Positions 1,143 to 34,655 of a stretch of 64,000 nt of DNA are shown here, in pieces. Under the pieces are notes generated by a model. It saw nothing but the letters and a program-made list of their open reading frames with translations, was not told where the DNA came from and ran no database searches. Made by a program: the position numbers and the translations under genes. Location: the NCBI GenBank assembly GCA_016214745.1, contig JACRNW010000006.1:13367-77366 (forward strand). Reading direction: 5' to 3'. Position 1 is the first letter of the stretch; every line of letters starts with the position of its first letter. The DNA is from Candidatus Falkowbacteria bacterium (GTDB lineage: Bacteria > Patescibacteriota > Patescibacteriia > XYB2-FULL-38-15).

Positions 1143-1236
1143 ATTTTCTAATTACCGTGGAGTTCAGGCTTTAGCCTGTACGTTGCGGCGTTCGTAAAAT
1201 ACACCCTAAAGGGTGAACTCCTATCGATTATAAAGT

Positions 1237-2752: not shown

Positions 2753-3196
2753 TTAAACTTCTTTGTTGTTATTTTCTTTTGATTCTTTGGTTTCTTTGCT
2801 AATCATTTTCCAGTGCCACAAGAATAGGGGAATGGCGACAAGGAGCATGGAAATGTCGCGAACGGCATTTTTCTGTTTTCTCGCGACTTTCATAATTCCT
2901 TGTTGGTCCTGCCAATTTTTATAATCAACGAGCCAGTTTTGAATTTGTTGTTTTTCGTCGGCTGTTAAATCACATTTATCTGCGCAGCGTTCGGCTGTTT
3001 GGCCAAGTTTTATTTCAGATGTCATGAGGTACGGGACTGGCGGCGCCCAATCGTCGGCTTTATCCGCGGTTTTAAAAACCCAGGTTTTGAGCCCGAGATT
3101 CGCGAGATCAACTGTTCCCCAAACAATCATCATTAAAGCAATCAAGGCAATTAGGTAGAAATAAACCGTTCGGATTGAGCTTAGTTTAAAAGCCAT
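2753..3196 (-). CDS. hypothetical membrane protein (2 TM) inserted between rplA and rplK
   Basis: 147-aa ORF with hydrophobic N- and C-terminal segments. No family recognised. Confidence 0.4.
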   Translation of the reverse strand: MAFKLSSIRTVYFYLIALIALMMIVWGTVDLANLGLKTWVFKTADKADDWAPPVPYLMTSEIKLGQTAERCADKCDLTADEKQQIQNWLVDYKNWQDQQGIMKVARKQKNAVRDISMLLVAIPLFLWHWKMISKETKESKENNNKEV

Positions 3197-3199
3197 AGA

Positions 3200-3285
3200 T
3201 TTAGTTAAATAGTTAATCAGTTAAATGGTTAAGTAGTTTTGTCGAAGGCAGTCACCGATTAACTGAGTAACTGATTAGCCAACTA
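3200..3285. repeat. Palindromic intergenic element family P2 (gttaatcagtt...aactgattaac), copy 1
   Basis: Inverted arms agttaaatagttaatcagttaaatggttaag / cgattaactgagtaactgattagccaactatt. Related copies at 8956-9083 and 61178-61286. Confidence 0.7.
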
Positions 3286-6956: not shown

Positions 6957-7043
6957 CTAATATTTATTAAGTTATTATAGCATAGAATATTTTATAAAAC
7001 AAGGGGACAAAAGCCCCTCTAAAAGAAGTTTTATAGATAAACT

Positions 7044-7097
7044 TGCCCAGCTTTCGCTGGGAATCCAGAAAAAACGGAATCCCGACGAAAGTCGGGC
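7044..7097. repeat. GC-rich double-hairpin unit G2 (cccagc-UUUC-gctggg ... cccgac-GAAA-gtcggg)
   Basis: gcccagctttcgctgggaatccagaaaaaacggaatcccgacgaaagtcggg. An almost identical unit and a half lie at 31891-31970. Confidence 0.7.
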
Positions 7098-8085: not shown

Positions 8086-8955
8086 ATGGCCATCCAAGAT
8101 CAGCCGACAGATTTTTCCGAAGGTCAATTAAAATTCGCTTCATGGTACGTTTCCCACAAAATTTTATTGAAGAAAATTTTGATTGGTTTTTTGATATTTT
8201 TAAATGCCATTCTTTTGGGCTACGGACTTTACGGACTTGTAAACTACTATTTTATTGAAGGACCGAAATTCGCGGCGGAAATGAGGGAACTTTCCAGCCC
8301 CATTGATTATTCCGCCATAAATCAGGCCGCGGCGCCAAAGAATTTTGAAATCGGAACGACGACGATTTTTTCTTCAGGAAAAGAGAGATATGATTTTGTC
8401 GCGAAAATTTTTAATCCGAACAGCGGCTGGCGGGCCGAATTCACTTACGACTTTTTGGTGGACGGAACGGCGCGTTTGGAGAAGAATGGTTTTACTTTAC
8501 CGGGTGAAGAAAAATTTATTTTTGATTTGGGCGTTTCGGCAAAAAGCAAACCTCGCCAGGCGGTTTTAGAAATAAAAAATTTACAATGGAAGAGGATAAA
8601 CGTCCATGAAATTCCCGATTACGCCGCCTGGCAAGACGAACGCTTGAATTTCATTGTTGAAAATGTAAAATTTACGCCGGCCGCAGTTCAGGAAAATGCG
8701 CTTTCCATCAGCCGGGCTTCATTTACGGCGAGAAACGCCTCGGCCTTTAGTTTTTGGGACGTGGGTTTTGCCGTTCTTCTTTATCGCGGCAGTTCACTCG
8801 CGGGCGTAAATTACATAACTCTTGAAGAATTCCGTTCTGGACAAAACCGTCCGGTTGAAGTAAGTTGGTTTGAGACATTGCCGTCAATAAGCCAGGTAAA
8901 AGTCATGCCGGAAGTGAATATTTTTGATCCGAAAGTGTTCATGCCAGTGGATTAA
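8086..8955 (+). CDS. hypothetical membrane-anchored protein
   Basis: 289 aa with an N-terminal TM (ILLKKILIGFLIFLNAILLGYGLYGLV) followed by a soluble domain. Confidence 0.45.
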   Translation: MAIQDQPTDFSEGQLKFASWYVSHKILLKKILIGFLIFLNAILLGYGLYGLVNYYFIEGPKFAAEMRELSSPIDYSAINQAAAPKNFEIGTTTIFSSGKERYDFVAKIFNPNSGWRAEFTYDFLVDGTARLEKNGFTLPGEEKFIFDLGVSAKSKPRQAVLEIKNLQWKRINVHEIPDYAAWQDERLNFIVENVKFTPAAVQENALSISRASFTARNASAFSFWDVGFAVLLYRGSSLAGVNYITLEEFRSGQNRPVEVSWFETLPSISQVKVMPEVNIFDPKVFMPVD

Positions 8956-9083
8956 AGTCAGTTAATCTGTTAATCAGTTGATTAGTTAATCAGTTTTTGG
9001 TTTTGTTGGGTAGTTTTTGTTTGTGGCAATTTAGTCGCCATTTTTTTAACTGATTAACTATTTAACCATTTAACTATTTAACC
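8956..9083. repeat. Palindromic intergenic element family P2, copy 2
   Basis: gtcagttaatctgttaatcagttgattagttaatcagtt...ttaactgattaactatttaaccatttaactatttaacc. Confidence 0.7.
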
Positions 9084-9086
9084 AAA

Positions 9087-10181
9087 GTGCTCTCGCGGTA
9101 TTTTTCATTTTTAAAACGTTTTGACTGGGTACTCGCGACTTCAGTATTTTTGCTTATGGTTTTAAGTTTAGTCGCGCTTTACAGCATTTCTTTAAGCAAA
9201 GCCCCGCCGGATTTTTTAAATTTTAATAAGCAGTTGATTTTTATTTTTGTCGGCTTGGCGGGATTTTTTGTTCTTAGTATTTTGGATTATAAGTGGTTGA
9301 AATTTTACAGTTTTCCCATTTACGGTCTGGCGATGATTTTGTTAATCGCTGTTTTGATTTTTGGCCAGGTTATTCGCGGAACTCAGGGTTGGTTTGGTTT
9401 TGGTTGGTTTAATTTTCAGCCGGTGGAAGTGGCGAAACTTGCCATGATTATTTTTTTGGCGAAATATTTTTCCCGCGGGGCGCATGAAATTTTTAATTTT
9501 AAATATATCGCGATAAGCGGAGTTTTTTCAGGAGTTTTGATCGGTTTAGTTTTGCTGCAGCCGGATTTTGGTTCGGCGTTGGTTCTTTTTTTCTTGTGGC
9601 TCGCGATGTTATTTTTAATTGGAATAAAGAGATCGCACTTGATTTTACTTTTAGTTTTGGTTGCGGTGCTTCTCGCCGGTTCGTGGTTTTTTGTTTTTCA
9701 GGATTATCAAAAAGAAAGAGTTTTGAGTTTTTTTGACGCTTCGCGCGATCCGCTCGGCCGCGGCTACAATATTACTCAGGCGCAGATTGCCGTCGGTTCG
9801 GGCCAAATGCTCGGCCGAGGAATTGGTTTTGGACCGCAAAGCCAATTGCGTTTCGTTCCGGAAAGCCAGACGGATTTTATTTTCGCCGTTTTAGCCGAAG
9901 AATTGGGTTTTTTGGGCGCGGCGCTTATTCTTGCTCTTTGGGGCGTTATTTTTTGGCGGGTTGTCCGAATCGCGAGACGCGCCCGCGACGATTTCAGCTT
10001 ATTTTTCGCGGCCGGTACAGCGATTGTCTTTTTGATTCAGATTTTTATTAATATTGGTATGACAGTCGGAGTAGCGCCGGTGACCGGTATTTCTTTGCCG
10101 TTTTTAAGTTATGGCGGCAGCGCGCTGGTCGTAAATTTAGCGATGGTCGGGATTTTAGAGAGTATTGCGGCAAGATCGTAA
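9087..10181 (+). CDS. SEDS-family peptidoglycan glycosyltransferase (RodA/FtsW)
   Basis: 364 aa, polytopic, with conserved SEDS segments (QPVEVAKLAMIIFLAKYF; PESQTDFIFAVLAEELGFLG; LPFLSYGGSALV). Confidence 0.8.
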   Translation: MLSRYFSFLKRFDWVLATSVFLLMVLSLVALYSISLSKAPPDFLNFNKQLIFIFVGLAGFFVLSILDYKWLKFYSFPIYGLAMILLIAVLIFGQVIRGTQGWFGFGWFNFQPVEVAKLAMIIFLAKYFSRGAHEIFNFKYIAISGVFSGVLIGLVLLQPDFGSALVLFFLWLAMLFLIGIKRSHLILLLVLVAVLLAGSWFFVFQDYQKERVLSFFDASRDPLGRGYNITQAQIAVGSGQMLGRGIGFGPQSQLRFVPESQTDFIFAVLAEELGFLGAALILALWGVIFWRVVRIARRARDDFSLFFAAGTAIVFLIQIFINIGMTVGVAPVTGISLPFLSYGGSALVVNLAMVGILESIAARS

Positions 10182-12128: not shown

Positions 12129-12139
12129 TTTTAATTTCC

Positions 12140-12212
12140 GTAATTACCCAGTTACCCAATTACTTAATTACAATCTCGTAATTAAGTAACTAATAGTAAC
12201 TAAGTAATTAAA
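12140..12212. repeat. Palindromic element family P3 (taattaccc...gtaactaagtaattaa), copy 1
   Basis: gtaattacccagttacccaattacttaattacaatctcgtaattaagtaactaatagtaactaagtaattaa. Related copies at 36234-36335 and 54313-54358. Confidence 0.65.
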
Positions 12213-12221
12213 TTATTTTTT

Positions 12222-12337: not shown

Positions 12338-13234
12338 TTATATTTTAAAAATAACAACTCTATTTCTTCCCGCCAGGTCTTGTTTAATCTTTATTTTCGC
12401 GGCGGGAAAACGGCGCTTGATTAGTTTTGTGATAGATTTTTTTTGCGATGGGTCAATTTCGAAGAAACATGAAATATGAAACTTAAAACTTGAAACTTGA
12501 AAATTTTTGATTTGTTTTAGGAGTTGGCGGTAGTAATTGAGGCCGTCAGAACCGCCGTCCAGAGCTTGCTTCGGTTCATATTTTTTAATTTCCGGTTGAG
12601 TATGTCGCCACTGCGTGGTAGTGAGGTATGGCAAATTGGCAACGATTATTAAGTTGGAGTAGCGCCCGTAAGGGCGCGCTTGTGACGCAGCCTCACGGCT
12701 GCTATTCCGCGATGGAATAGTCATCAATGGCTCAAGCAAATTGCCGTGTAGCAAAGTAACGGCGACTTTATGATGAAGAATATTTTTTCGCGCTACTTTT
12801 AACGCCGCCGCCGAAATTTCTGTGGCGAAGATTTTTGCTTTGGGAAGATGGTGGGCGAGTGTTATGGCGATGGCGCCGCTTCCGGTTCCGACATCAATGA
12901 TTGCAGTTGGATTTTTATCTATTGCGGCTTCAACTAATGTTTCCGTTTCGGGGCGGGGGATTAGAACATTTTTATCAACAAAAAAATCCAGGCCGTAAAA
13001 ATATTTGTGGTCCGTGAGGTAGGCGATTGGTTCATGCCGTACTCGCCGAGCAATAAGTTTTTTAAATTTAGCCAGTTGTCCCGCGGCCAATTTTTTTTTA
13101 GGATGCGCGTACAAAAATTCTTTTGGTTTTTTTGTAACAAAAGCTAAAAGAATCTCTGCATCCAAGGCAGGGGAGGAAATTTTATTTTTTTGTAAAATTT
13201 TTATTGCCTCAATGAGCGATTGCTTGATAGTCAT
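12338..13234 (-). CDS. prmC: release factor glutamine methyltransferase PrmC/HemK, carrying a roughly 20-aa in-frame GC-rich insert
   Basis: DVGTGSGAIAITLA (SAM motif I) and IVANLPYL (NPPY-type motif). I place the start at MTIKQSL because the upstream in-frame codons lie inside the terminator hairpin of the neighbouring islet gene. The insert is MTIPSRNSSREAASQARPYGRYS, encoded by hairpin-forming GC-rich DNA at 12655-12728. Confidence 0.75.
   Translation of the reverse strand: MTIKQSLIEAIKILQKNKISSPALDAEILLAFVTKKPKEFLYAHPKKKLAAGQLAKFKKLIARRVRHEPIAYLTDHKYFYGLDFFVDKNVLIPRPETETLVEAAIDKNPTAIIDVGTGSGAIAITLAHHLPKAKIFATEISAAALKVARKNILHHKVAVTLLHGNLLEPLMTIPSRNSSREAASQARPYGRYSNLIIVANLPYLTTTQWRHTQPEIKKYEPKQALDGGSDGLNYYRQLLKQIKNFQVSSFKFHISCFFEIDPSQKKSITKLIKRRFPAAKIKIKQDLAGRNRVVIFKI
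12655..12728. repeat. In-frame GC-rich palindromic mini-insert inside prmC
   Basis: Hairpins agcgccc-gtaa-gggcgcg and ctattcc-gcgat-ggaatag lie between the conserved HemK motifs, where homologs have about 7 residues. Confidence 0.55.
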
Positions 13235-13316
13235 AGCGTTATTATAACATAAAAAAAGGCCTGAGCACTTGCGCACTCAGGCACCTCCTTGGAATTCGTT
13301 CCGCGGTGGGCTACGT

Positions 13317-13853
13317 TCAGGTGGGCTTGCCGGCGGTGGGCTCGACGACCTCCAGCTCCTCCTCGACGACCTCGGCTTCCGGAGCGTCAGCTTCTTCCGT
13401 GGCGGCTTTCGTGGCCTCCGCTCGGCTCTCGGTGACACAAGCGTCGAGCTCACGGTAGGGGAAAGCGTTGACGAGGTTGCTCCACGTGACGGGGTGACCG
13501 TCGGAGTCTTCCGTGTGGAGGAACTCCTCGAAAGCCGTCACAGTTTCATCGTGAGGGATTCGCTTGAACAGCTCGTCGACGAACAACTTGAAGTCCTTGG
13601 TGGCCGCCTCGAAGAGAGTCAGATTGTCCTCCACGCTTCCATGCCAGCCGGCGTAGAAGGGTCCGACGATCTTCGCGAAGCCGTGCAGTCCGACGAGACG
13701 CTTCAGGCCGGCGACGAAGCTCGGCTTCAGGCCCTCGCCGGGGATGGCCAGGATCTTGGCCACGATGTCCTCGACCCTCAGGAACCCCGTCAGGTAAGCC
13801 TTCTCCAGGCCGTCCGCAAGAAATACCTTCGCCATTTCCCGTCTGTCTTCCAT
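13317..13853 (-). CDS. GC-rich islet protein A (hypothetical, acidic C-terminal tail)
   Basis: MEDRREMAKVF... of about 178 aa. It has its own promoter (TTGACA-17-TAATGT at about 13918-13946, minus strand), an SD (gaaggaaaacc) before the ATG, and a hairpin plus T-run terminator (13259-13285, minus). GC content is far above that of neighbouring genes. Confidence 0.5.
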   Translation of the reverse strand: MEDRREMAKVFLADGLEKAYLTGFLRVEDIVAKILAIPGEGLKPSFVAGLKRLVGLHGFAKIVGPFYAGWHGSVEDNLTLFEAATKDFKLFVDELFKRIPHDETVTAFEEFLHTEDSDGHPVTWSNLVNAFPYRELDACVTESRAEATKAATEEADAPEAEVVEEELEVVEPTAGKPT

Positions 13854-13917
13854 GGTTTTCCTTCGCTTGCCTTTGCCCGCGACACGCGGGGAATTTTGGC
13901 AAGACCTTTCTACCCGC

Positions 13918-13946
13918 ACATTAGTTTAAAAAATTTTGTTTGTCAA
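13918..13946 (-). promoter_or_regulatory. sigma70-type promoter of islet gene A
   Basis: Minus-strand read cTTGACAaacaaaattttttaaacTAATGT: 17-nt spacer, placed about 60 nt upstream of the ATG. Confidence 0.45.
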
Positions 13947-14122
13947 GATAAAAAAAGAGCCCGCGGACTGCCGGGAGGGGGTGGGAGGTCTAAGACCTTT
14001 CCACGCGGCAGTACGCGGGCTTCGCGCCGGGGCTCTCCTGTGGTTTCGGGAGGGGCGCGAATTTGGACGGAGAACGAGCGGGTTAGGAACTCGCAGCTCT
14101 CACGTTGTTCGGGGGTGGACTA

Positions 14123-14335
14123 CTACTGGTCGGTGCCGTGAAGGCGGTATTCGCGCGCCTTCCGCCTGGCTCCTTCGGCTTGGCGGCGTTCCTCCTCGTC
14201 GTCGGGGATGAACCCGTCGGCGCGGCGATGATTCGGCCGACGCCTCTCGATCACGAACGGCCCTCCGTCCGGAATGATGCGAGATCCGTCGCGCGAGAGA
14301 GGCGTGCCATCGTGCATGAAAACTCCCTTTGACAT
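14123..14335 (-). CDS. small basic GC-rich protein (about 70 aa)
   Basis: The SD GAGGAGG lies 6 nt upstream of ATG: MSKGVFMHDGTPLSRDGSRIIPDGGPFVIERRRPNHRRADGFIPDDEEERRQAEGARRKAREYRLHGTDQ. Confidence 0.3.
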   Translation of the reverse strand: MSKGVFMHDGTPLSRDGSRIIPDGGPFVIERRRPNHRRADGFIPDDEEERRQAEGARRKAREYRLHGTDQ

Positions 14336-14500
14336 CCCTGTCCTCCTCAACCTTCCCTACGATCTCTATTGACAACTCGTCCCGTCCATCGGGCCGAGAT
14401 GTAGGGCCACCTTCCTTGCGTTTTGACGCGTGTCAACGGCGCAAAGCCACCCTGTTTGTTGATTTCATAATATTACAAAAAGATTAATTTGTCAACCCCC

Positions 14501-14529
14501 TTGACAAATTTTTTAATTATGATAGAGTA
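14501..14529 (+). promoter_or_regulatory. sigma70-type promoter (TTGACA, 16-nt spacer, TGaTAGAGT extended -10) overlapped by the inverted repeat ttgtcaa-ccccc-ttgacaa
   Basis: Read directly from the sequence. No protein-coding ORF follows it. Confidence 0.4.
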
Positions 14530-14534
14530 TTACG

Positions 14535-14855
14535 GCAAGGGTAATGGGGAGTCCTGTTCGGCTGATGCCAGCAGCGCACTGGCGTCATGGGTAATCTTTT
14601 TTCATCCCAAATCTAGAGCCCCTGGTTGGCGAACAGCGCGTTGATGCGCGGCCGACCTTGAGGCAAAGGACCCACGGGGTGGTCAGCAGGAACCCGGTCC
14701 GCGAGCTGCCCGTGAAGCAGACGTGGACTGAAATCTCCCCCGCGTTTTCGATCCTCCAAATCCGCTTTTAGCGGGTAAGGAGGTCACCCTTCTTTGCACA
14801 CCGCTACGTTTCGCGTTGTGCCTGTCGGTCGAACACCTGTTCGGCCGACTCTTTT
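14535..14855 (+). ncRNA. Candidate structured GC-rich non-coding RNA of about 320 nt (identity unknown)
   Basis: A promoter at 14501-14529, no ORF longer than 10 codons, and a strong terminator at 14818-14855 (gtcggtcgaacacctgttcggccgac + tctttttt). About 60% GC in an AT-rich genome. I could not match tmRNA, RNase P or SRP signatures by eye. Confidence 0.3.
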
Positions 14856-14880
14856 TTATATCAAAATTTATATCAAAAAA

Positions 14881-15083
14881 CCGGCCTTGCGGCCAGTCAA
14901 TTTTCCCCTCTTAAGGTAAGAGGGGCTGGGCCTGCCCGCAACGCCAGCAACCTGCCCGCTAATGCAAGCATAGCGTTGCAGGCGGGGCTGGCTTGCGTGG
15001 CGGGCGGGGGCGTTATGAGCGGCGATTTTAAAATCCACGGTTCATAACGCCACCCAACCCCCCCTTATCTTAAGGGGAGGGGT
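14881..15083. repeat. GC-rich composite element G1, copy X (flanked by ccccttaagg-type mini-hairpins)
   Basis: The roughly 130-bp core (cccctcttaaggtaagaggggctgggcctgcccgcaacgccagcaacctgcccgctaatgcaagcatagcgttgcaggcggggctggcttgcgtggcgggcgggggcgttatga...) is nearly identical to the reverse complement of 33070-33200. The last hairpin encodes the prfA C-terminus and stop. Confidence 0.8.
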
Positions 15084-16122
15084 TCATTGTTTCTTTTTTC
15101 AACACTTCAATGATCGGGTCAAGTTCGCCATCCATCACGTTATTTATACTATGCCAACTTTCTTTAACGCGGTGATCGGAAACGCGGTCTTGAGGAAAAT
15201 TATAAGTTCTGATTTTTTCCGCGCGCATGGCCGAACCGATCTGCGAACGTCGCGCCGCGACTTCCGCCGCCTGGCGTTTTTCCTGCTCCATTACAAAAAG
15301 TCGGGCGCGCAAAACTTGCATGGCTTTTTCCCGATTTTGCTGCTGGGAACGTTCGTCTTGGCAGGCGACAACAAGGCCCGACGGAATATGAGTAATACGC
15401 ACGGCGGAATATGTCGTTTGCACGCTCTGCCCGCCATGGCCGCCGGATAAAAATGTATCAACGCGCAAATCTTTTGGTTCAATTTTAATATCAATTTCTT
15501 CAGCTTCAGGAAGGACGGCGACGGAAGCGGTTGAAGTATGAACCCGGCCGCTTTTTTCCGTTTCCGGAACGCGCTGAACGCGATGCACGCCGCTTTCAAA
15601 TTTTAAATTTCCCCAAGCACCTTTTCCGATAACAGAAAAAATAATTTCTTTAAAACCTCCAAGGTCAGTGCGGTTGGCCGAGATCAATCTTGTCTGCCAG
15701 CCCTTGCGCTCGGCAAAGCGCGAGTACATTCGGAAAAGTTCGGCGGCAAAAATTGCGGCTTCATCGCCGCCGGCGCCAGCCCGGATTTCCACAATAATAT
15801 TTCTTTTGTCCAACGGATCTTTCGGCGTCAGTTCTTCTTTGATTTCCGCTTCAAGCGCCGACTTTTCTTGCCTAATTTTTTCCAATTCTTCTTTGGCAAT
15901 GACAGCCAATTCGGGAATGTCTTGCGCAGCAACGGTTTCCGTGTCAGTTTCTTCCTTTTCCAGTTTATGAAATTTATTTATTTTTTCCATTACTTCTTTT
16001 AAGTCGCTGTATTCCCGCGAAACGGTTTTCAGTTTTTCCGGATTAGAAACCACCTCGGGGCGGGCGAGTTCGGCCTCGAGTTCGGCAAAACGTTTTTCAG
16101 CTTTAGCGATTTCAGGAATCAT
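15070..16122 (-). CDS. prfA: peptide chain release factor 1
   Basis: 350 aa with GGQ ([12 protein letters not shown]) and the RF1-type PxT-like tripeptide ([14 protein letters not shown]). Confidence 0.9.
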
Positions 16123-16221
16123 AAATTATTTAAACATCTAAACATTTAAACATTTTAACATAAATTCTAACATAAAAACATGATAACAAAAACGTTACCA
16201 TGTTTTATGCAAATTGAATAG

Positions 16222-17885: not shown

Positions 17886-17961
17886 TTTTTATAAAAACAT
17901 ATAAACATCTAAACATACAAACAATTGTTTAAATGTTTAAATGTTTGAATATTTAAATATT

Positions 17962-18552
17962 ATGATCGTAAATCCAAAACTTGTTTCCGAGCTCCGCAAT
18001 GAAACCGGCGCCGGCGTTGTTGAATGCAAAAACGCCCTGGACGAAGCGAACGGAGACATCGCAAAAGCGATTGAAATTTTGAGAAAAAAGGGTGAGATTA
18101 AAGCCGCGAAAAAATCGGCCGAACGGACAACCAAAGAAGGTTTGATTCATGCTTATGTCCACGCGAACGGCAAAGTCGGAGCGATGATTGAAATGAGTTG
18201 TGAAACTGATTTTGTGGCGCGGAATGAAGAATTTCAGGCTTTGATTCATGATGTCGCGATGCAAGTCGCGGCGACTAATCCGTTGTACGTAAAACCCGAA
18301 GACGTGCCGGAAGAAGTGGTTGCAAAAGAAAAACAGATGTATCTTGAAGAATTGCAGGGGCAGGAAAAACCGCCGATGGTAGTGGAAAAAATTCTCGCGG
18401 GAAAATTGGAAAAATATTTTGAAGATGTTTGTCTCTTAAACCAGCCGTTCGTTAAAGACGAGGATATTACAATTGGAGAATTAATAAATCAAAAAATCGC
18501 CAAGATCGGCGAGAAGATTGAAGTGAAGAAATTTGTTAGGTTTCAGATTTAA
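17962..18552 (+). CDS. tsf: elongation factor Ts
   Basis: EF-Ts N-terminal UBA-like region (ELRNETGAGVVECKNALDEANGDIAKAIEILRKKG) and core. I place the start at ATG 17962 rather than the track's 17941. Confidence 0.85.
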   Translation: MIVNPKLVSELRNETGAGVVECKNALDEANGDIAKAIEILRKKGEIKAAKKSAERTTKEGLIHAYVHANGKVGAMIEMSCETDFVARNEEFQALIHDVAMQVAATNPLYVKPEDVPEEVVAKEKQMYLEELQGQEKPPMVVEKILAGKLEKYFEDVCLLNQPFVKDEDITIGELINQKIAKIGEKIEVKKFVRFQI

Positions 18553-21212: not shown

Positions 21213-22259
21213 ATGACGCATGCGGAGTTACAAAAATTCATAGCATTTTTGATGAAGCGCGGCTGGACAGTTTTTGCGCCGGAAAAACGGCCGGGAGAGG
21301 TTGTTTATGCCGAAGTGCAAGACGCCGCCAAAGTTAAGTTGATTTCCGAACCGCCGCTGCATTCATTTAAAAGATTTTTGGTTCCGCCCGAGGAAACGCT
21401 TTTTGAGTACGAAAAAGACAAACTGAACGAGGTTCGCGATGCGGGAATAAAAATTCCGAAGCAAGTGATTTTTGGCATTAATCCGGTTGATCTGAAAGCG
21501 ATTGTAATGTTAAATCAAATTTTTGAGCGAGATCCCTGGTATCAGGAACGGATGCGGCGGACGCTTATCATCGGCCAGAGTTTAATCCCGGCCGATGTTG
21601 AACATAATATTTTTCAAATTAAATACGAAGAAGACATTTTGGAACATCTGCAGTTTGATATTTTTTTGGAAGTGCAGCCCCTCACCCCTGCCCGCAACGC
21701 CAGCGCTAGCGTGGCAGGCGGGCCAACCCTCTCCCCAAAGGGGAGAGGGGCAGAGTATTTTGTCTACACCGGTTCGGAAGAAGGGCAAAGCAGTTTGGAA
21801 GATTTCGGTTATGAAGATTATGAGCACATCGCTTTCGCCGGACCGATCAGGGAAGAGGGTTTTGATCCCATGATGGTAAAATACCGCGACGCGCTCCGAA
21901 AAACTTACAAAAAAGAAATTTGGGAAAATGATATCGGCGCGCGTTGTATTGAGTGCGGCAAATGCACGCTTATTTGCCCGACCTGTTTTTGTTTTGATAT
22001 GAAAGATCAGCCGGATTTAGTGGGCGATGGCGGGGTGCGCAAGCGCGCTTGGAGCGCTTGTTTTTATAATGATTTTTCCGAAGTCGCCGGCGGGCATAAA
22101 TTTTTAAAAACTACGGCCGAGCGGATTCATTTTTGGTATTATCATAAATTTGTCCGAATTCCGGACCAGATTCAGATTATGGGTTGCGTCGGCTGTGGCC
22201 GGTGCGCCAAGGTCTGTCCGGTGAACATAAATATTTTTAAAGTTCTGGCGGCATTGTGA
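21213..22259 (+). CDS. hydB: [NiFe]-hydrogenase group 3b beta-like subunit (4Fe-4S; AsrA/HydB-like), carrying an in-frame GC-rich insert
   Basis: Two Cys clusters ([16 protein letters not shown]; [13 protein letters not shown]). The segment [26 protein letters not shown] is encoded by the G1-related GC-rich hairpin DNA at 21676-21752. Confidence 0.65.
21676..21752. repeat. In-frame GC-rich element inside hydB (a shortened G1 derivative plus the mini-hairpin ctccccaaaggggagagg)
   Basis: Shares cctgcccgcaacgccagc with G1 copies at 14925 and 33160. The local GC jump is visible in the sequence. Confidence 0.6.
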
Positions 22260-22272: not shown

Positions 22273-22662
22273 ATGCCAATACATACGAATGATACGAATA
22301 AAATCATTTATAAAGAACTTTCTTATAAGATTAATGGTATTTTATTCAGGGCGCATAATGAGTTGGGTCGGTATTGTCGCGAAAGGCAGTACGCCGACAA
22401 ATTGGAAGAACTTTGGAAAGAAAATAAGATTAATTACAAAAGAGAAAAGAAAATGCTTGGCGATTTAGTGACAGGTAACATTCCCGATTTTTGTATAGAA
22501 GACAAGATATTGTTAGAAATTAAGGCAAAAAGTTTTATTGTCAAAGAAGATTATTATCAAATACAGCGGTATTTGCAGACAAATAAAATTAAGTTGGGGC
22601 TATTAGTCAATTTTAGAAATCGTTATCTCAAACCTATTCGTATCATTCGCATTAATTCGTAA
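22273..22662 (+). CDS. GxxExxY family protein (PD-(D/E)xK-like small protein)
   Basis: 129 aa matching the GxxExxY family pattern ([22 protein letters not shown]...[45 protein letters not shown]). Confidence 0.7.
22285..22650 (+). mobile_element. GxxExxY gene cassette bounded by 16-bp inverted repeats that overlap the gene's own first and last codons
   Basis: acgaatgatacgaata at 22285-22300 against tattcgtatcattcgc at 22635-22650 (15 of 16 complementary). It sits between hydB and the gamma subunit. A related cargo-less palindrome lies at 3708-3785. Confidence 0.4.
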
Positions 22663-23541: not shown

Positions 23542-24813
23542 GTGTGCTTAACCATTCCCGGTAAAGTTATAGAAATTAAAGATCAAAATGCCTTACTCAA
23601 AACATCAAGTGGAGTAAGGCAAATTAATATTGGGCTCATATCACGCGTAAAAGTAGGTGATTGGCTTCTTGCTTCAATTGATTTAGCGGTCAAAAAAATA
23701 AAAGCGAAAGATGCGGAGGAAATTTTAGAATTACTCAGCGGAAAAAAAATAACAGATACAAATAACGTTAGTTTTAAATTTAGAGAAATTCTAAAAAATG
23801 CTCAAATTGGAGATTTAACAAAAGAAGAAATTATTTATTTACTTAAAACGGAAGGGCAAGAAAAGGAAGTATTATTTTCCGAGGCAGATGCGGTGTGTAA
23901 AGAAAATTTAAAAGATTTTATTTGCTTACATGCGATTGTTGAATTTTCAAATTATTGCGCAAATAATTGTTTTTATTGTGGGCTCCGGAGCGAGAATAAA
24001 ACTGTTGTCCGTTATAGAATGAGTATTTCGGAAATTGTTAAAGTCGCAAATGAAGCGGTCAACAAAATCGGCTATAAGATGATTGTGCTCCAGTCGGGCG
24101 CGGATATGCAATACACAGATGAAATGTTGGTTGAAATTATTAAAAAAATTAAAGCCAAAAGTCGGTGTTTTATTTTTATGAGTGTGGGGGAGCGAAGCGT
24201 TCAATGTTACAAAAAAATGAAAAAAGCGGGGGCGAATGGCGTTTTATTTAGATTTGAAACTTCAAATCCGAAACTTTATAATATTTTACATCCTAAAAAT
24301 ACTTTAAAGGGTGGGCTTCAAAATCGGTTGGCTCTTTTGCGAGAGATAAAAAAAATGGGATATTATATTTCATCAGGTCCGATTATAGGATTGCCCGGCC
24401 AGACTCTAGAAGATTTAGCAGATGATATTTTGATGATGAAAAAATTGAGCGTTGGCATGGCTTCAATGGGCCCGTTTATTCCGTGTGACGGGACACCCTT
24501 AGCGGGCGAGTCGCACGGCGATGTTGAACTTTCTTTAAAGACAATTGCTGCTTCTCGTCTTTTGATACCGAAGGCGCGCATTCCGGTAACAACAGCACTC
24601 GAAACACTTGATCCGCAAAACGCGCGTAAACGAGGATTGCAAAGTGGAGCCAATTCTTTAATGTTTAATTTGACTCCGGCGAAATATCGCAGTAAATACA
24701 AAATTTATCCAAATAAATTTCACGGGCGAGATAAAGATTTGGAAGATTTTGCCCTATACAAGGGAAAGGAGAGTTGGGAAATGCTCACAAGAGAATTTAA
24801 AAAATATATTTGA
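23542..24813 (+). CDS. HypC-like domain fused to a HydE-like radical SAM enzyme
   Basis: GTG start. Residues 1-70 read MCLTIPGKVIEIKDQNALLKTSSGVRQINIGLISRVKVGDWLLASIDLAVKKIKAKDAEEILELL (HypC/HupF signature MC.IP with Cys2). The radical-SAM core HAIVEFSNYCANNCFYCGLRSEN closely resembles HydE/BioB-family CxxxCxxC regions. Confidence 0.7.
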   Translation: MCLTIPGKVIEIKDQNALLKTSSGVRQINIGLISRVKVGDWLLASIDLAVKKIKAKDAEEILELLSGKKITDTNNVSFKFREILKNAQIGDLTKEEIIYLLKTEGQEKEVLFSEADAVCKENLKDFICLHAIVEFSNYCANNCFYCGLRSENKTVVRYRMSISEIVKVANEAVNKIGYKMIVLQSGADMQYTDEMLVEIIKKIKAKSRCFIFMSVGERSVQCYKKMKKAGANGVLFRFETSNPKLYNILHPKNTLKGGLQNRLALLREIKKMGYYISSGPIIGLPGQTLEDLADDILMMKKLSVGMASMGPFIPCDGTPLAGESHGDVELSLKTIAASRLLIPKARIPVTTALETLDPQNARKRGLQSGANSLMFNLTPAKYRSKYKIYPNKFHGRDKDLEDFALYKGKESWEMLTREFKKYI

Positions 24814-24815
24814 TT

Positions 24816-26189
24816 ATGGAAATAATTAATCAAGAAAAAATTTTTGATATTTTGGAAAAAACAAAAGACGCGAGCCAGAGCCGTTTTGAAGAAATAATTA
24901 ATAAAGCGAAAAAGATAAAAAGTTTAGATTTAGAAGAGGTGGGCATTTTGATAAATATTAGCGATGAAAAATTGATACAGAAAATGCAACAGGCGGCGCG
25001 CGAGATAAAAATGGCAATTTACGGGCCACGCCTGGTTTTGTTTGCCCCACTTTATGTTTCAAGTTTTTGTATCAACGACTGTGAGTATTGCGGTTTTCAT
25101 TGCCGGAATGCGACGCCGCGGAAAAAATTATCTTTGGATGAAGTGCGGCAGCAGGTGGAAATTTTGGAAGACATGGGGCACAAGAGATTGCTTTTGGAAT
25201 TTGGTGAAGATCCAAAAGAAAATCCGATTGATTATGTAACAGGTGTAATTAAAACAATTTATGCTACTAAAAAGGATCGCGGTTCAATTCGTAGAGTTAA
25301 TGTTAATATCGCCGCAACGAGCGTGGAAAATTATAAAAAATTAAAAGAAGCGGGGATCGGTACTTATCAACTTTTCCAAGAAACTTATCATCGGCCGACT
25401 TACGAAAAACTTCATTGCGGTCCAAAGGCGGATTACGATCGACAGATTACGGCCATGGATCACGCTTTTGCGGGAGGAATTGATGATTTGGGAATCGGTG
25501 TGCTGTTTGGTCTTTATGATTGGCGTTTTGAGGTTTTAAGTTTAGCGGCACACGCAGATTATATGGAGAAAACTTTTGGCGTCGGGCCGCACACTATTTC
25601 CGTCCCGCGCTTCCGTCCCGCGCCGACAGTTGATTTTAAATCAGAACACGAAGTCAGCGACAATGATTTTTTGAAACTTATCGCCATTTTACGTTTAGCA
25701 GTGCCATATACCGGAATGATTATGTCTACTCGCGAATCGCCGGAAATAAGGCGCCAGGCGTTTGAAATAGGAATTTCGCAAACGAGCGCGGGATCGCGTA
25801 CAACTCCCGGGGGATATAATGAAAAAAATAAAAAAGAAGAATTAGCTCAGTTCAATTTAAGTGATCACCGCACTTTAGATGAAATCGTCCGTGATATTTG
25901 TAAATTGGGATATTTACCGAGTTTTTGTACAGCCTGTTATCGAAGCGGCCGGACTGGCGATGACTTTATGAAGTATGCCAAAGCGGGAACGATACAAAAT
26001 TTTTGTCAACCAAACGCCATTTCAACTTTCAAGGAGTATCTTCTGGATTACGCAACGCCCGAAACGCGCGAGGTGGGGGAAGAAGTGATTAAAAGAGAAA
26101 TTAAAAAAATAAAAGACGCGCGGGTGCGTCAAAAGTTAGAAGAAAAACTCTCTCTGATAGAAAAAGGAAAACGCGATTTGTATTTTTAG
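24816..26189 (+). CDS. HydG/ThiH-family radical SAM tyrosine-lyase-like protein with a HydG-type C-terminal CX2CX22C motif
   Basis: N-terminal cluster FAPLYVSSFCINDCEYCGF. The C-terminal FCTACYRSGRTGDDFMKYAKAGTIQNFC has exactly 22 residues between the second and third Cys. Start placed at ATG 24816 (MEIINQ). Confidence 0.7.
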   Translation: MEIINQEKIFDILEKTKDASQSRFEEIINKAKKIKSLDLEEVGILINISDEKLIQKMQQAAREIKMAIYGPRLVLFAPLYVSSFCINDCEYCGFHCRNATPRKKLSLDEVRQQVEILEDMGHKRLLLEFGEDPKENPIDYVTGVIKTIYATKKDRGSIRRVNVNIAATSVENYKKLKEAGIGTYQLFQETYHRPTYEKLHCGPKADYDRQITAMDHAFAGGIDDLGIGVLFGLYDWRFEVLSLAAHADYMEKTFGVGPHTISVPRFRPAPTVDFKSEHEVSDNDFLKLIAILRLAVPYTGMIMSTRESPEIRRQAFEIGISQTSAGSRTTPGGYNEKNKKEELAQFNLSDHRTLDEIVRDICKLGYLPSFCTACYRSGRTGDDFMKYAKAGTIQNFCQPNAISTFKEYLLDYATPETREVGEEVIKREIKKIKDARVRQKLEEKLSLIEKGKRDLYF

Positions 26190-28740: not shown

Positions 28741-28885
28741 TCTAAAATTACAAATCCTAAATAAATTCAAAACTCAAATATCCAAATTCAAAACTTTTTG
28801 GATTTAGATATTTGATATTATTTGGAATTTGGTGCTTTGAATTTGGAATTTTAAAATTTTGCATTTTGATTTTTGATGTTTGATT
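28741..28885. repeat. AT-rich simple hairpin repeat cluster (family P4)
   Basis: caaatatccaaattcaaaac / tttgaatttggaattt inverted low-complexity units. Confidence 0.5.
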
Positions 28886-31108: not shown

Positions 31109-31867
31109 ATGAATAAACCCACACTCGCTATTGCCAGTATGACTTGTTGCGAGGGTTGTCAGGTGGAGATTTTAAATTTAGGAAAACGACTTCTGGATCT
31201 TTTCCAAGTTTTTGATTTGGGAAATTTTTCCTGGGCCGAGGAAAAAAAGGAGAGGCCGAAATACGACGTGGCGGTGATCGAGGGAACTCCGCTCACGCAT
31301 GAGGATGTAAGATATTTGAAAGAATTGCGGAGAAAATCAAAAATTTTGGTTGCCATCGGAAGCTGTGCGCATTTGGGCGGAGTTCAGGAAATAAAAAATT
31401 ACGCCGAGAAAAATAAAAATGAAAAAGTAAAATACGTTTACCCAAAATATCAGCGGATACAAAATCCAACGGTCGTGCCGCTTTGGAAAGTGGTAAAAGT
31501 TGATTATACCGTGCCGTGCTGTCCGATTGATAAAGATGAATTTTTCCGGGTGATTTCCGATATTGCTTTTGGCCGCGCGCCAAAAATTCCTTTACGTCCA
31601 GTTTGCTTTGAATGCCAGACGAGCGGATACGAGTGTCTTTTGCAAAAAGGTCAGCCGTGTATGGGGCCAATTACGATCGGCGGCTGTAAAGCGATTTGTC
31701 TTCGGAGTAAAAGATTTTGTTATGGCTGCCGCGGGCCGCTTCCCGGAGCCGGGCCGCAGATTAAAAAACACTTGCGAAATATTGAAAAATTAGTTGGGAA
31801 AAAATATCTTCGCGAAATTATGGAAACCTACGGCGCGGAAGATGATTTTTTGCGAATTGAGAAATAA
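31109..31867 (+). CDS. hydD: [NiFe]-hydrogenase small (delta-like) subunit
   Basis: TCCEGC (proximal cluster), GSCAHLGG and the distal Cys motifs. Confidence 0.7.
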   Translation: MNKPTLAIASMTCCEGCQVEILNLGKRLLDLFQVFDLGNFSWAEEKKERPKYDVAVIEGTPLTHEDVRYLKELRRKSKILVAIGSCAHLGGVQEIKNYAEKNKNEKVKYVYPKYQRIQNPTVVPLWKVVKVDYTVPCCPIDKDEFFRVISDIAFGRAPKIPLRPVCFECQTSGYECLLQKGQPCMGPITIGGCKAICLRSKRFCYGCRGPLPGAGPQIKKHLRNIEKLVGKKYLREIMETYGAEDDFLRIEK

Positions 31868-31890
31868 GATATTTTGTTTGATATTTCAAC

Positions 31891-31970
31891 CGGAATCCCG
31901 ACGAAAGTCGGAAAATTGCCCAGCTTTCGCTGGGAGTCCAGAAAAAACGGAATCCCGACGAAAGTCGGGT
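31891..31970. repeat. GC-rich double-hairpin unit G2, 1.5 copies
   Basis: ggaatcccgacgaaagtcgg...gcccagctttcgctgggagtccagaaaaaacggaatcccgacgaaagtcggg. Compare 7044-7097. Confidence 0.7.
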
Positions 31971-32027
31971 TTTTGATTTCTCCCCTTAAGGTAAGGGGAG
32001 ATTAAGAGGGGTGAAATGGGGTTGACA

Positions 32028-32056
32028 AACTTGCTAAAATGTGTTATTCTAAATTG
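32028..32056 (+). promoter_or_regulatory. sigma70-type promoter (gTTGACAaac-17-TATTCT) preceding a hairpin-dense roughly 300-nt leader of islet gene D
   Basis: Read from the sequence. The leader at 32060-32360 contains at least 6 GC-rich hairpins (ctccccgaaggggagag, ctccctttaaaaaagggagag, cccccctttatcaagggggga and others). Confidence 0.35.
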
Positions 32057-32365
32057 TTAGTAAATAGTTCTTTTAAAGGTAAAACCCCCTCACTCCAACT
32101 CTCTCCCCGAAGGGGAGAGAGAGTTTCCTCGCCCCACTGGGGAGAGGACTAAGGTGAGGGGGCAACAAGTTCCCAGTTTTCTTTTGGCGGTTTTAAATCC
32201 CTCTCTAACTCTCCCTTTAAAAAAGGGAGAGAAATTCCCCCCTTTATCAAGGGGGGATTAAGGGGGATTTGCGAAGACCCCCAAAAGAAGGCTGGGAATT
32301 TCTCTCGGCCAGAGACAGCAACGTAGTCGCCGCGGGCGACCAGTTGCGAAGAAGGAGAACGAGTC

Positions 32366-32869
32366 ATGAGCGACGAGTTCAGGATGACGACGGGACAGGC
32401 GCATGAGTTGGCGATGGCCTTCGGTCGCAACGGCTGGACCAACGCCGACGTGAAGAAGATGTCTGAGGGCGATCTGCTCGCCCGACTGCTACCGGTCATC
32501 CGGGGGCAGGCCGACGTGAAGAAGCCGGAAATCCCGACCGAGATGACCGTCGGCGGCCGCGTCTACGAGATCCTCTCCTTCCTCCGGGAGGAGGACAACG
32601 GATTCGTCCGCGGCGACGTGATGGTCTCCCGGGCGAAGGAGCTCGGCGCCAACCTCGGCAAGGAGGACTGCGAGTTCCTCCTCACCCACCAGGACGAGAT
32701 TCCGCCCGCGTTGCGGGGCAAAGTCGTCTTCGTCTTCCCGGACTTGCGGCGCCCGGGCGACCGCGAGCACGTCGCGTACCTCCACTGGGACGACGGCGGC
32801 TGGTACCGGCACTGGTACTGGCTCTCGGACGACTGGGACGGCTACGATCGTCTCCTTCGCCGCAAGTAG
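32366..32869 (+). CDS. GC-rich islet protein D (hypothetical, W/D-rich C-terminus)
   Basis: SD gaaggag before the ATG. 167 aa with high GC3. Shares a weak DCEF/FEEF-L-x-T motif with islet proteins A and C. Confidence 0.45.
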   Translation: MSDEFRMTTGQAHELAMAFGRNGWTNADVKKMSEGDLLARLLPVIRGQADVKKPEIPTEMTVGGRVYEILSFLREEDNGFVRGDVMVSRAKELGANLGKEDCEFLLTHQDEIPPALRGKVVFVFPDLRRPGDREHVAYLHWDDGGWYRHWYWLSDDWDGYDRLLRRK

Positions 32870-33018
32870 TGTCCTTGGACCCTGGGTAACTCGGCCCTTC
32901 AAACCGGCCTGGTCGCTCGGACCCTCGGACACTTTGTCCCTTGGCCCCACTTCAAATCCAATGCTTCACAAAGCAAAGGAAATGAAGCGGGGCCGTTTTT
33001 TTATTTAAGATTTTAGAT

Positions 33019-33207
33019 TTTCTCCCCTTAAGGTAAGGGGAGACTAAGAGGAGTTATGAACGGTGGATTTTAGTGCTACGGTTCATAACGCCCCCGCCCG
33101 CCACGCAAGCCAGCCCCGCCTGCAACGCTATGCTTGCATTAGCGGGCAGGTTGCTGGCGTTGCGGGCAGGCCCAGCCCCTCTTATCTTAAGAGGGGAGCG
33201 TTATACT
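33019..33207. repeat. GC-rich composite element G1, copy Y (inverted relative to copy X)
   Basis: The reverse complement of 33070-33200 matches 14908-15040 almost base for base. Confidence 0.8.
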
Positions 33208-33265
33208 GATTTTTTTATTTATCTTTTTATGATATAATGAATAAAATTAGTGAAGAGAATAAATT

Positions 33266-34558
33266 ATGAAAATAAAAATAAGCCACCTCGCCAAAATTGA
33301 AGGGCATGCCAGTTTTTTTGCCGATATGCTCGCCGGCGATATCAAAAACGCCAAATTGAAAATTACGATTGGCGCGCGTTTGATTGAATCAATAATTTTA
33401 AACCGCAATTATATTGAAACGCCGATTGTGACCTCGCGCATTTGTGGCATATGTTCGGTGGCGCACAATATCACAAGCATTAAAGCGATTGAAAACGCAT
33501 TAAAAATAAAAATAAATCCTCAAATTGAACGGCTCCGAAAAGTTTTGGTTTTGGCCGAGCCGATCCAAAGCCACGCGGCGCATCTTTTCTTTTTATCTTT
33601 ATCCGATTTTTTCAAATATGAAAGCGACATTGATTTGATGAAAAAATATCCCGACCTCGCCAAAAAAATTATTTTGATTCGCGATTTTGGAAATAAAATT
33701 AAAGATGTGGTCGGCGGAAGAGATATGCACATGATCGTGACGGAAATCGGCGGGTTTAGAAGAGTGCTTGATGATAAAATAATTCAAAAATTAATTGATG
33801 AAACTGAAGGCGTGCTAGAAGCCGCGATTGGCGTGGCGAAATTTTTTCGGGCGCTTGATTATCCGAAATATGAACGGAAAGTGGAATTTGCGGGACTCAC
33901 CGCGCCGCGCGAGTATGCTTTTTATGACGGCGTAATTGGATCAACTATGGAGTCGGCACGTCCCGTGAAAAAATTCTATAAAGAACTTGTGGAAAAGCAA
34001 ACTGCGGACGATCCGACCAAGCGCGCGCGGCACGAGGGCAAAAGTTTTATGGTCGGCGCGATTGCGCGGTTAAATTTGAGCCACAAATTTTTAAATCCCG
34101 AAGCGAAAAAGTTTTTGACTTTTTTTGACAAATCCCTCTCCAACTCTCCCTTTGGAAAAGGGAGAGGGTCTGTTCTCACGTTTAACACTTTTCACAATAT
34201 TTACGCCCAGTCTGTGGAGCTCGTTCATTGCGTTGAAGAGGCGCAAAAACTGCTCAAAGAATATTTGCGCGATAAATCAAGAAATTTGATGGTAAAATAT
34301 ACTTTAAAAAACGGCGAAGGACTTGGAGCGACCGAGGCGCCGCGCGGCACGCTTTATCATTATTATAAAATTGATAAATATGGTGTGATTCGCGCTTGTA
34401 ATATTATTACTCCGACGGCGCAATTTTTGGATAATTTGGAAAATGATTTGGAAAAATATTTGAATGAGGCAAAAATCAAAGATGAGAAGGATAGAAAATG
34501 GAAAATAAATATGATGGTGCGCGCGTACGATCCTTGTATGACATGTGCTACACACTAA
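33266..34558 (+). CDS. hydA: [NiFe]-hydrogenase large subunit (group 3-like, about 430 aa), ending exactly at the C-terminal His
   Basis: N-terminal RICGICSVAH (L1 motif) and C-terminal DPCMTCATH followed by stop, so there is no cleavable extension. An in-frame hairpin insert lies at 34133-34170. Confidence 0.8.
   Translation: MKIKISHLAKIEGHASFFADMLAGDIKNAKLKITIGARLIESIILNRNYIETPIVTSRICGICSVAHNITSIKAIENALKIKINPQIERLRKVLVLAEPIQSHAAHLFFLSLSDFFKYESDIDLMKKYPDLAKKIILIRDFGNKIKDVVGGRDMHMIVTEIGGFRRVLDDKIIQKLIDETEGVLEAAIGVAKFFRALDYPKYERKVEFAGLTAPREYAFYDGVIGSTMESARPVKKFYKELVEKQTADDPTKRARHEGKSFMVGAIARLNLSHKFLNPEAKKFLTFFDKSLSNSPFGKGRGSVLTFNTFHNIYAQSVELVHCVEEAQKLLKEYLRDKSRNLMVKYTLKNGEGLGATEAPRGTLYHYYKIDKYGVIRACNIITPTAQFLDNLENDLEKYLNEAKIKDEKDRKWKINMMVRAYDPCMTCATH
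34133..34170. repeat. In-frame GC mini-hairpin element inside the hydrogenase large subunit
   Basis: tccctctccaactctccctttggaaaagggagagggtc encodes SLSNSPFGKGRGS. It is near-identical to the intergenic copy at 32208-32231 (tccctctctaactctccctttaaaaaagggagag). Confidence 0.6.
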
Positions 34559-34655
34559 AGTTAAAAGTTAAAAATTAAAAGTGCAAAGTTACAGTTTAAA
34601 GTTTAAAGGTTTTTTCAATAACTTTTAACTTTTCACTTTACACTTCTAACTTGTT

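Follow-up and report, generated by a model that had tools for sequence, protein, structure and literature searches.

The candidate phyla radiation (CPR, or Patescibacteria) makes up a big fraction of bacterial diversity, and its members have tiny, densely coding genomes. Odd insertions are familiar from this group in the form of ribosomal RNA (rRNA) insertion sequences and tRNA introns. We analysed 64,000 nt of DNA from a Candidatus Falkowbacteria bacterium (GenBank assembly GCA_016214745.1, contig JACRNW010000006.1, positions 13,367 to 77,366 of the forward strand); this whole stretch, with an overall guanine-plus-cytosine (GC) content of 43%, is called the window below. The initial annotation, made from the sequence alone, had claimed that short GC-rich palindromes interrupt or terminate four coding regions without breaking their frame. 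Such DNA was indeed seen in prmC, in a hydB-like gene, in the gene for a [NiFe]-hydrogenase large subunit and at the end of prfA, and the inserts consist of whole codons that contain no stop. The genes and elements concerned are the following.

12338-13276, minus strand: prmC (Pfam)
12655-12728, minus strand: in-frame insert in prmC, three consecutive mini-hairpins (sequence, fold, alignment)
14895-15085, minus strand: G1a, a composite array whose four hairpins lie between the stop codon and the terminator of prfA
15058-15082, minus strand: terminal hairpin of G1a, supplying the last codons of prfA (..N-P-S-P) and its TAA stop
15070-16122, minus strand: prfA (Pfam)
21213-22259, plus strand: hydB-like Fer4_22 protein, hydrogenase beta subunit (Pfam)
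21678-21746 (boundary ambiguous by ±3 nt), plus strand: in-frame insert in hydB, 69 nt or 23 codons (protein and DNA alignment)
21687-21722, minus strand: 36-nt palindrome CCCGCCTGCCACGCTAGCGCTGGCGTTGCGGGCAGG (as on the minus strand), nested in an older hydB hairpin element
21727-21749, plus strand: polypyrimidine/polypurine hairpin CCCTCTCCCC-AAA-GGGGAGAGGG in hydB, read LSPKGRG
31109-31867, plus strand: [NiFe]-hydrogenase small subunit
32195-32231, plus strand: intergenic twin of the large-subunit element, 34 of 37 nt identical; twin hairpin at 32209
33015-33200, plus strand: G1b, an inverted copy of G1a
33266-34558, plus strand: [NiFe]-hydrogenase large subunit (Pfam)
34130-34168, plus strand: large-subunit hairpin element (hairpin at 34144-34166), net gain of 27 nt or 9 codons, reading SLSNSPFGKGRGS

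Palindromic inserts in prmC, the hydrogenase genes and prfA

The window as a whole is rich in such structures: it holds 53 perfect GC hairpins with a stem of at least 6 bp, about four times the number found in block shuffles (12.3 ± 3.0). Folded as single-stranded DNA, the inserts were also more stable than their shuffles, with z = -4.24 for prmC, -3.9 for hydB and -2.3 for the large subunit. By sequence comparison, the prmC, hydB and large-subunit inserts are derived and lineage-specific, as the closest orthologs and all outgroups lack the extra residues. At least three mutually unrelated hairpin families are involved. The proposal that a single palindromic element had proliferated is therefore retained here for its likeness to the behaviour of Rickettsia elements and not for the number of families.

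In prmC, the insert is built from three mini-hairpins (12662-12677, GCGCCC-GTAA-GGGCGC; 12687-12702, GCAGCC-TCAC-GGCTGC; 12704-12724, with the 7-bp stem CTATTCC/GGAATAG) and encodes MTIPSRNSSREAASQARPYGRYS, a loop directly ahead of the NLPY (NPPY) motif; alignment to 2B3T/1T43 likewise places it in the loop before NPPY. None of 200 shuffles folded as well. The loop has 25 aa in this genome. Most close relatives have about 12-14 aa at this place, whereas distant ones and the solved HemK structures have about 5-7 aa, such that the spacing of 7 aa initially given for homologs applies to the distant ones only. A single frame of the six is open through the insert, namely the one in use. The insert is common only to P0243/L003, a locus from a European Nucleotide Archive (ENA) assembly, which carries the same triple hairpin; most relatives are without it, and other prmC sites in relatives hold several further inserts. 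The hairpins are identical to those of L003 at 49 of 51 positions vs about 75-80% for the flanks, a comparison free of selection bias because L003 was found via its protein. The first hairpin of L003 has two CC-to-TT changes, after which pairing is kept only as G-U on the sense strand. We found no second copy of the prmC hairpins within the window. Consequently, the claim that the inserts match intergenic copies stands for hydB, the large subunit and prfA and falls for prmC. Furthermore, neither the prmC hairpins nor the window's polypyrimidine hairpins had a match in 553 kb of low-GC, mostly CPR loci, which indicates that these families are lineage-specific.

The hydB insert combines an imperfect palindrome with the CCCTCTCCCC-AAA-GGGGAGAGGG hairpin. 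Orthologs up to 91% identical are 325 aa long and lack it, and at the DNA level the difference is exactly 69 nt. The segment had been described as derived from G1. An exact 18-mer is indeed present in G1a, G1b and hydB (0.09 chance matches expected); the insert itself, however, is a composite, in which the 36-nt palindrome is nested in an older element. A relative (L179) carries CCCCTCACCCCAACCCTCTCCCGCAAAGGGAGAGGG, which is the window's hydB element minus its central 36 nt. This indicates that the insert arose in two steps, the second of which was a precise 36-nt insertion. At the nucleotide position CAG|GGC of hydB, three different hairpins occupy exactly the same spot in the relatives L178, L179 and L180. 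In an AlphaFold (AF2) model based on ortholog alignments, the insert (residues 159-178) has a predicted local distance difference test (pLDDT) score below 50 and lies at the turn of a beta-hairpin, between the strands 150-156 and 180-186.

The large-subunit insert, CTCTCCCTTT-GGA-AAAGGGAGAG together with a conserved stretch of 14 nt on its 5' side, is open in every one of the six frames. Orthologs that are 93-94% identical have 421 aa and are a net 27 nt shorter. The intergenic twin noticed at the outset was confirmed, and L004/P0133, a locus from a Logan assembly, carries an identical hairpin in the gene. In the AF2 model, residues 290-301 score below 50 between the helices 285-293 and 310-335, and in both modelled proteins the flanks are predicted far better than the insert. 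The same loop holds six different, unrelated inserts in six relatives. The polypyrimidine/polypurine hairpins of hydB and the large subunit both read ..SP.(G)KGRG; this common reading frame, to which attention had been drawn, is real and, with n = 2, statistically meaningless. A frame-breaking insertion was considered for the split large-subunit gene of P0166/L181 and rejected, since the gene is split elsewhere than in the insertion loop, by what looks like a common frameshift. No database match reproduced the 430-aa large-subunit protein exactly (best 93%), whereas the window's hydB and prmC were matched at 100%; the source annotation may use another start for this gene or may have flagged it.

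The end of prfA is supplied by G1a, as had been claimed: the TAA stop (15070-15072) sits in the loop of a hairpin at 15061-15077, and the protein ends in ...KKETMNPSP* vs ...EVLKKT* in the L003 ortholog. G1a holds a 42-nt palindrome that is also found in other CPR lineages (see below), with a 36-nt member of the same family nested at its apex. In G1b, the arms of the 42-nt palindrome lie at 33093-33114 and 33153-33170, and the nested 36-mer (33115-33150) is placed exactly at the apex. The two composites share a core of about 110 nt with one differing position.

A 36/42-nt palindrome family in the CPR

The core of the hydB insert and of G1 are members of one family of palindromes, whose distribution we followed with the 18-mer common to G1 and hydB as the query against reference genomes, one per species. 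The scan returned at least 112 loci. Among the 112 matches listed, 24 contained a full palindrome, which was the 42-mer CCCGCCCGCCACGCAAGCCAGCTTGCTGGCGTTGCGGGCAGG in 22 cases (with at most three differences in the unselected arm) and the 36-nt variant in two. The other 88 had the 18-mer alone, nearly all in high-GC genomes, and are chance matches. All 24 full-palindrome loci lie in low-GC DNA. Their labels are mostly of CPR lineages (Saccharibacteria, Doudna-, Davies-, Levyi- and Falkowbacteria, Parcubacteria, and 'Patescibacteria group', with one single-cell genome among these); the non-CPR labels among them are three contigs of one metagenome-assembled genome (MAG) labelled Gammaproteobacteria and one unclassified 'bacterium' MAG. 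A metagenome scan with a 30-mer yielded 61 further loci. No match to the palindrome was found in the scan of viral contigs, and hence there is no sign of a phage vector. The 36-mer in hydB is the exact reverse complement (36/36 nt) of copies in a Saccharibacteria genome (L104) and in another Patescibacteria genome (L050).

The 42-mer corresponds to 14 codons and is free of stops in all six frames; therefore, any insertion into a gene keeps the frame. Long open reading frames (ORFs) hold 27 of 61 distinct copies among the matches listed, and each of the six frames occurs. The orientation is that of the host gene in 17 of these 27 copies and opposite to it in 10 (p = 0.25). TsaD carries a copy at the same loop in two lineages, MnmA has one in four lineages and Dus is occupied at two sites; further hosts include RpoD, CysS and DprA. 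When Dus sites with and without the element were compared, the difference was exactly 42 nt; no target was duplicated, microhomology amounted to CC at most, and the 36-mers nested in hydB and in G1 are similarly free of duplication. The MnmA copies are 98-100% identical vs 58-80% for their flanks, a contrast that is biased because the loci were chosen by an exact match to the element. At four loci (L017, L075, L076 and L142), the 42-mer lies within a larger element of about 130 nt with the terminal inverted repeats GTAAAATTTTC...GAAAATTTTAC, which suggests composite carriers of the 42-mer resembling MITEs (transposable elements of the miniature inverted-repeat type).

In other CPR genomes, five independent copies of the 42-mer sit in the D-loop of tRNA 5' pseudo-halves. 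There, an intact tRNA gene (Val, Asp, Lys or Asn) has a GIY-YIG ORF of about 75-87 aa immediately on its 5' side. In most cases, 14-40 nt from the 5' end of the tRNA recur ahead of this ORF, and the 42-nt palindrome interrupts this duplicate, most often within the D-loop. Intact GIY-YIG ORFs adjoin the 42-mer at eight loci (L012, L080, L122, L124, L133, L135, L156 and L175). Seven of them are 15-48 nt downstream of the palindrome; in L124, the ORF is just upstream and the palindrome lies between it and the tRNA. Nine GIY-YIG ORFs occur in 523 kb of these loci, and eight of them are neighbours of the palindrome; three representatives match Pfam PF01541 (E down to 5e-17), and ORF remnants were seen at five further loci (L128, L132, L155, L163 and L165). 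The window has no such ORF and most palindrome copies have none nearby; the nucleases may be the mobilising enzyme, which we treat only as a lead. The pseudo-tRNAs can be read in two ways: either the nuclease mobilises the element, or they simply offer a harmless place of insertion to an element with a preference for D-arm hairpins. The possibility that the 42-mer is a mini-intron in tRNA was rejected, as its excision in silico restored no tRNA and the hosts are 5' pseudo-halves upstream of intact tRNAs.

Intergenic arrays, GC-rich islands and neighbouring genes

Further hairpin elements of the window lie between genes, several of them within a 1.4-kb insertion (31868-33265) that splits the small- and large-subunit genes; in the relative L002, these two genes are 2 nt apart.

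1159-1221, plus strand: intergenic Y-shaped element, outer stem GGAGTTC/GAACTCC and two mini-hairpins
7039-7096, plus strand: intergenic hairpin doublet CCCAGC-TTTC-GCTGGG / CCCGAC-GAAA-GTCGGG, second copy, 97% identical, repeat family D15
31880-32260, plus strand: intergenic hairpin array within the 1.4-kb insertion
31912-31969: doublet with GNRA loop, part of the array
31979-32001: hairpin, part of the array
32085-32162: Y-shaped element, part of the array (fold z = -6.4)
32236-32257: hairpin, part of the array
3196-3282, 8953-9087, 12130-12215, 16115-16163, 17886-17962, 28763-28859, 34556-34645, 58650-58786 and 61165-61283: 8-nt-period repeats

An element of the same design as that at 1159-1221 is located after prfA in L003. 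The 8-nt-period repeats are AT-rich (TAAACATN, GTTAATCA, TAACTAAG...) and fill many intergenic regions, often as inverted arrays around gene starts. Besides its hairpin arrays, the 1.4-kb insertion contains an orphan ORF of 68% GC (32366-32869, plus strand), whose C-terminal domain of about 110 aa is found in more than 1000 representative clusters of a 1.8-billion-protein library, sometimes in tandem, and has no Pfam model. The same junction is occupied by a PDDEXK_3 gene in the relative L004 and by an Ldh_2 gene in the relative L181. Between hydB and the gene for the FAD/NAD subunit is wedged a small ORF (22273-22662, plus strand) for a PD-(D/E)XK nuclease (PF13366, E = 1e-18). In the relatives L001, L179 and L180, the hydB and FAD/NAD subunit genes overlap, and the nuclease ORF looks like another selfish insertion into the operon. 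The [NiFe]-hydrogenase cluster also encodes a radical-SAM/BATS protein that includes a fused HypC (HupF/HypC) domain (23542-24813, plus strand), followed by a second radical-SAM/BATS protein (24810-26189, plus strand); the cluster of L002 has a stand-alone HypC and is devoid of the radical-SAM genes.

The gap between prfA and prmC (13277-15069) is a GC island of 55-60%, with local peaks of about 70%, and contains an orphan ORF of 200 aa (13317-13919, minus strand), divergent sigma-70-like promoters (14467-14528) and terminators of its own. Parts of it are homologous, at 76-78% identity, to an island that L003 carries in the corresponding location. Since this divergence is about that of the flanking genes, the island is old, yet its high GC has been kept. 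It had no Pfam, PHROG or phage match. Within it, at 14530-14862 (plus strand), lies a candidate structured RNA of about 330 nt that is GC-rich and flanked by a TTGACA-16-TAGAGT promoter and an intrinsic terminator (14824-14849). Its minimum free energy has z = -4.3, with none of 100 shuffles as good; it belongs to no Rfam family and is not alignable to L003. A permissive Rfam scan of 13900-15100 gave chance-level matches only. For the high-GC orphan ORFs beside the hairpin arrays, searches against Pfam and PHROG and by tblastn against phages gave no match. Orphan single-gene cassettes that are GC-rich (about 58-59%) and have strong AGGAGG sites lie at 49224-49691 (minus strand), 49844-50305 (minus strand) and 55474-55941; TTGACA-like sequences are present upstream of the pair at 49-50 kb, and no Pfam or PHROG match was obtained for any of the three. 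No intron or ribozyme was detected when the whole window was searched against Rfam at gathering thresholds, the sole match being a ribosomal protein L10 leader (RF00557, 47.7 bits; 61105-61255, plus strand). No tRNA genes were found in the window.

Origin and nature of the inserts

We regard it as probable that the inserts are selfish, non-autonomous palindromic DNA that is translated through and behaves like the Rickettsia elements discussed below. According to this model, several unrelated families of 23-78 nt would build up in the few intergenic gaps of a compact Falkowbacteria genome, and occasional copies would land, or survive, inside genes. A copy in a gene would persist only if it added whole codons, brought no stop into the host frame and fell in a loop that tolerates extra residues. 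In the polypyrimidine/polypurine stems, stops are impossible. A surviving insert would be transcribed and translated as a short, probably disordered loop rich in Pro, Ser, Gly, Arg and Ala, and would be roughly neutral. The elements nest inside one another, as do the 36-mer in the hydB element and the 36-mer at the apex of the 42-mer. Such nesting at the apex, together with precise, duplication-free insertion and the copies in D-loops, argues for a hairpin or single-stranded DNA target rather than for a classical transposase; the elements may move via an intermediate of either kind.

Several points weigh against this model. No transposase or other mobilising enzyme was present among the ORFs scanned within the 64-kb window. 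Active movement was not seen, presence and absence having been compared between diverged relatives, and translation of the inserts is a prediction from their sequence. The prmC hairpins are single-copy in the window. Different hairpins at an identical hydB position could reflect evolution in place. Finally, conservation is higher in the elements than in the coding sequence on either side, which would not be expected of decaying junk; this excess could be due to a function, to recurrent site-specific insertion or to gene conversion among copies.

Palindromic elements in Rickettsia (Rickettsia palindromic elements, RPE) were reportedly described by Ogata et al. in 2000. Like them, the elements described here lie between genes as well as in frame inside unrelated housekeeping genes, encode short peptides at tolerant protein sites and have no known transposase. 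As to permissive sites, the hydB and large-subunit inserts are predicted to lie in low-pLDDT loops, in agreement with the structural test that had been proposed, and the prmC insert is placed in a loop by alignment. The likeness extends to the setting, as RPE too are palindromic repeats in the small AT-rich genome of a host-dependent bacterium (PMC10969869). RPE measure about 100-150 bp, belong to ten families specific to Rickettsia and favour a single coding frame, whereas the present elements are 23-78 nt long, are hosted by a CPR bacterium and, in the case of the 36/42-nt family, use six frames and recur almost without change in different CPR lineages; size and host set them apart. The best reading is that they behave like RPE and are probably not homologous to them. 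We found no description of these elements in the CPR in the literature, including work on CPR tRNA introns and rRNA insertions, as far as our incomplete coverage goes. The initial remark that no description was known for this kind of genome agrees with this result; the phenomenon itself reaches far beyond this genome.

Repetitive extragenic palindromic sequences (REP) and the bacterial interspersed mosaic elements (BIME) and REPIN that they form are mobilised by REP-associated tyrosine transposases (RAYT), which are Y1 transposases like those of IS200/IS605. They resemble the present elements as GC-rich imperfect palindromes of 20-40 nt in mosaic intergenic arrays, with no target-site duplication, with hairpin dependence and often at the 3' ends of genes (PMC3733652). 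However, REP are extragenic by definition, bear GTAG or CGTC at their head and reach copy numbers in the hundreds, accompanied by a RAYT gene (PMC3733652). The present elements have neither head (the 42-mer runs CCCGCC...GGCAGG, and the hairpins start with CTCTCC, GCGCCC or CCCGAC), include intragenic copies in prmC, hydB and the large subunit, and appear to have a low copy number per genome. No RAYT was noticed within the 64-kb window, where no search was aimed at it. In yeast mitochondria, GC clusters are mobile and some lie in frame inside protein genes (var1). Organellar palindromes, including these clusters and those of Volvox (PMC2670323), placozoans (PMC7813641) and Nematomorpha (PMC6649704), are similar in being GC-rich in a compact AT-rich genome and in nesting; they differ in being organellar and unrelated in sequence, and in Nematomorpha the coding palindromes are perfect inverted repeats of great length, reaching 284 bp (PMC6649704). 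MITEs in genes (Coxiella QMITE1, PMC5896051; ERIC and BOX, PMC10969869) are likewise short, non-autonomous repeats that can form in-frame fusions with their hosts. MITEs have terminal inverted repeats matching a parent insertion sequence and target-site duplications, neither of which was found here. The elements are wholly palindromic, and the window ORFs scanned include no transposase.

We also considered, as a bolder and decidedly tentative extension of the selfish-element model, that the 36/42-nt palindrome is still active and exchanged horizontally across the CPR. Its length (14 or 12 codons) and, in the 42-mer, its openness in six frames would then be adaptations for hiding in the essential genes of genomes with hardly any non-coding DNA. 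Its precise insertion would target hairpin loops or single-stranded DNA, be it at its own apex, in tRNA D-loops or at sites coding for protein loops, and small, structure-specific GIY-YIG nucleases would mobilise it in trans.

Among the alternatives, the one that fares best, and which we nevertheless consider unlikely, is that the hairpins are functional DNA or RNA structures under selection, for instance sites that bind proteins, stabilisers of mRNA, pause sites for ribosomes or insulators resembling terminators, and that the coding inserts are maintained as such. The conservation of the elements beyond that of their flanks would fit this explanation, and yet locus selection accounts for part of that signal. 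The loops are of the GNRA, CUUG and GAA types, which are stable classes, and the CC-to-TT changes in the first prmC hairpin of L003 leave pairs, as G-U, on the sense strand only. On the other hand, the closest relatives do well without the inserts, unrelated sequences take the same loops, the copies are spread over all six frames and over many host genes unrelated to one another, and the 17:10 orientation bias to host genes is not significant.

It is still less probable that the hairpins are immobile and arise in place at fragile sites, through template switching, slippage or palindrome amplification, and then diverge. Such an origin would account for distinct hairpins at exactly the same hydB nucleotide in four lineages, for the single prmC insert of the window and for the failure to find either a target duplication or a transposase. 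It cannot explain near-identical copies of 37-110 nt at unlinked loci of the window, a 36-mer that is identical in Falkowbacteria, Saccharibacteria and another Patescibacteria genome or a 42-mer common to CPR lineages in unrelated genes.

We give very little credence to the idea that the inserts remain untranslated, being removed by RNA excision or skipped by ribosome bypass, as in T4 gene 60 or with the byp elements found in Magnusiomyces mitochondria. Stable hairpins would suit such a process, as would the 42-mer copies within tRNA-like sequences of other CPR genomes; those sequences, however, are 5' pseudo-halves upstream of an intact tRNA copy. Bypassed elements, introns and inteins are recognised by a break of the frame or by stops; in contrast, every in-gene copy examined consists of whole codons without a stop in the host frame, and the prmC insert uses the sole open frame. 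We know of no splicing or bypass signals for such sequences. Lastly, an assembly or binning artefact, in which chimeric GC-rich reads were joined into an AT-rich contig, might be suspected from the islands of 60-68% GC in a contig of 43% GC, and is extremely improbable because all inserts are in frame and because the same inserts (those of prmC and the large subunit in L003 and L004) and a homologous GC-rich island recur in independent assemblies made from other samples and by other pipelines (NCBI, ENA, Logan, JGI and one single-cell genome).

If the selfish-element model is correct, translated-through palindromes would explain many length differences and low-complexity loops in CPR proteins, with consequences for gene calling, for pseudogene flags and for the alignments used in phylogeny. 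They would constitute a second independent system, beside that of Rickettsia, in which mobile DNA makes new protein loops. The 42-nt sequence conserved across CPR lineages may in turn serve as a marker of horizontal exchange among episymbionts and as a handle on the enzyme that moves it.

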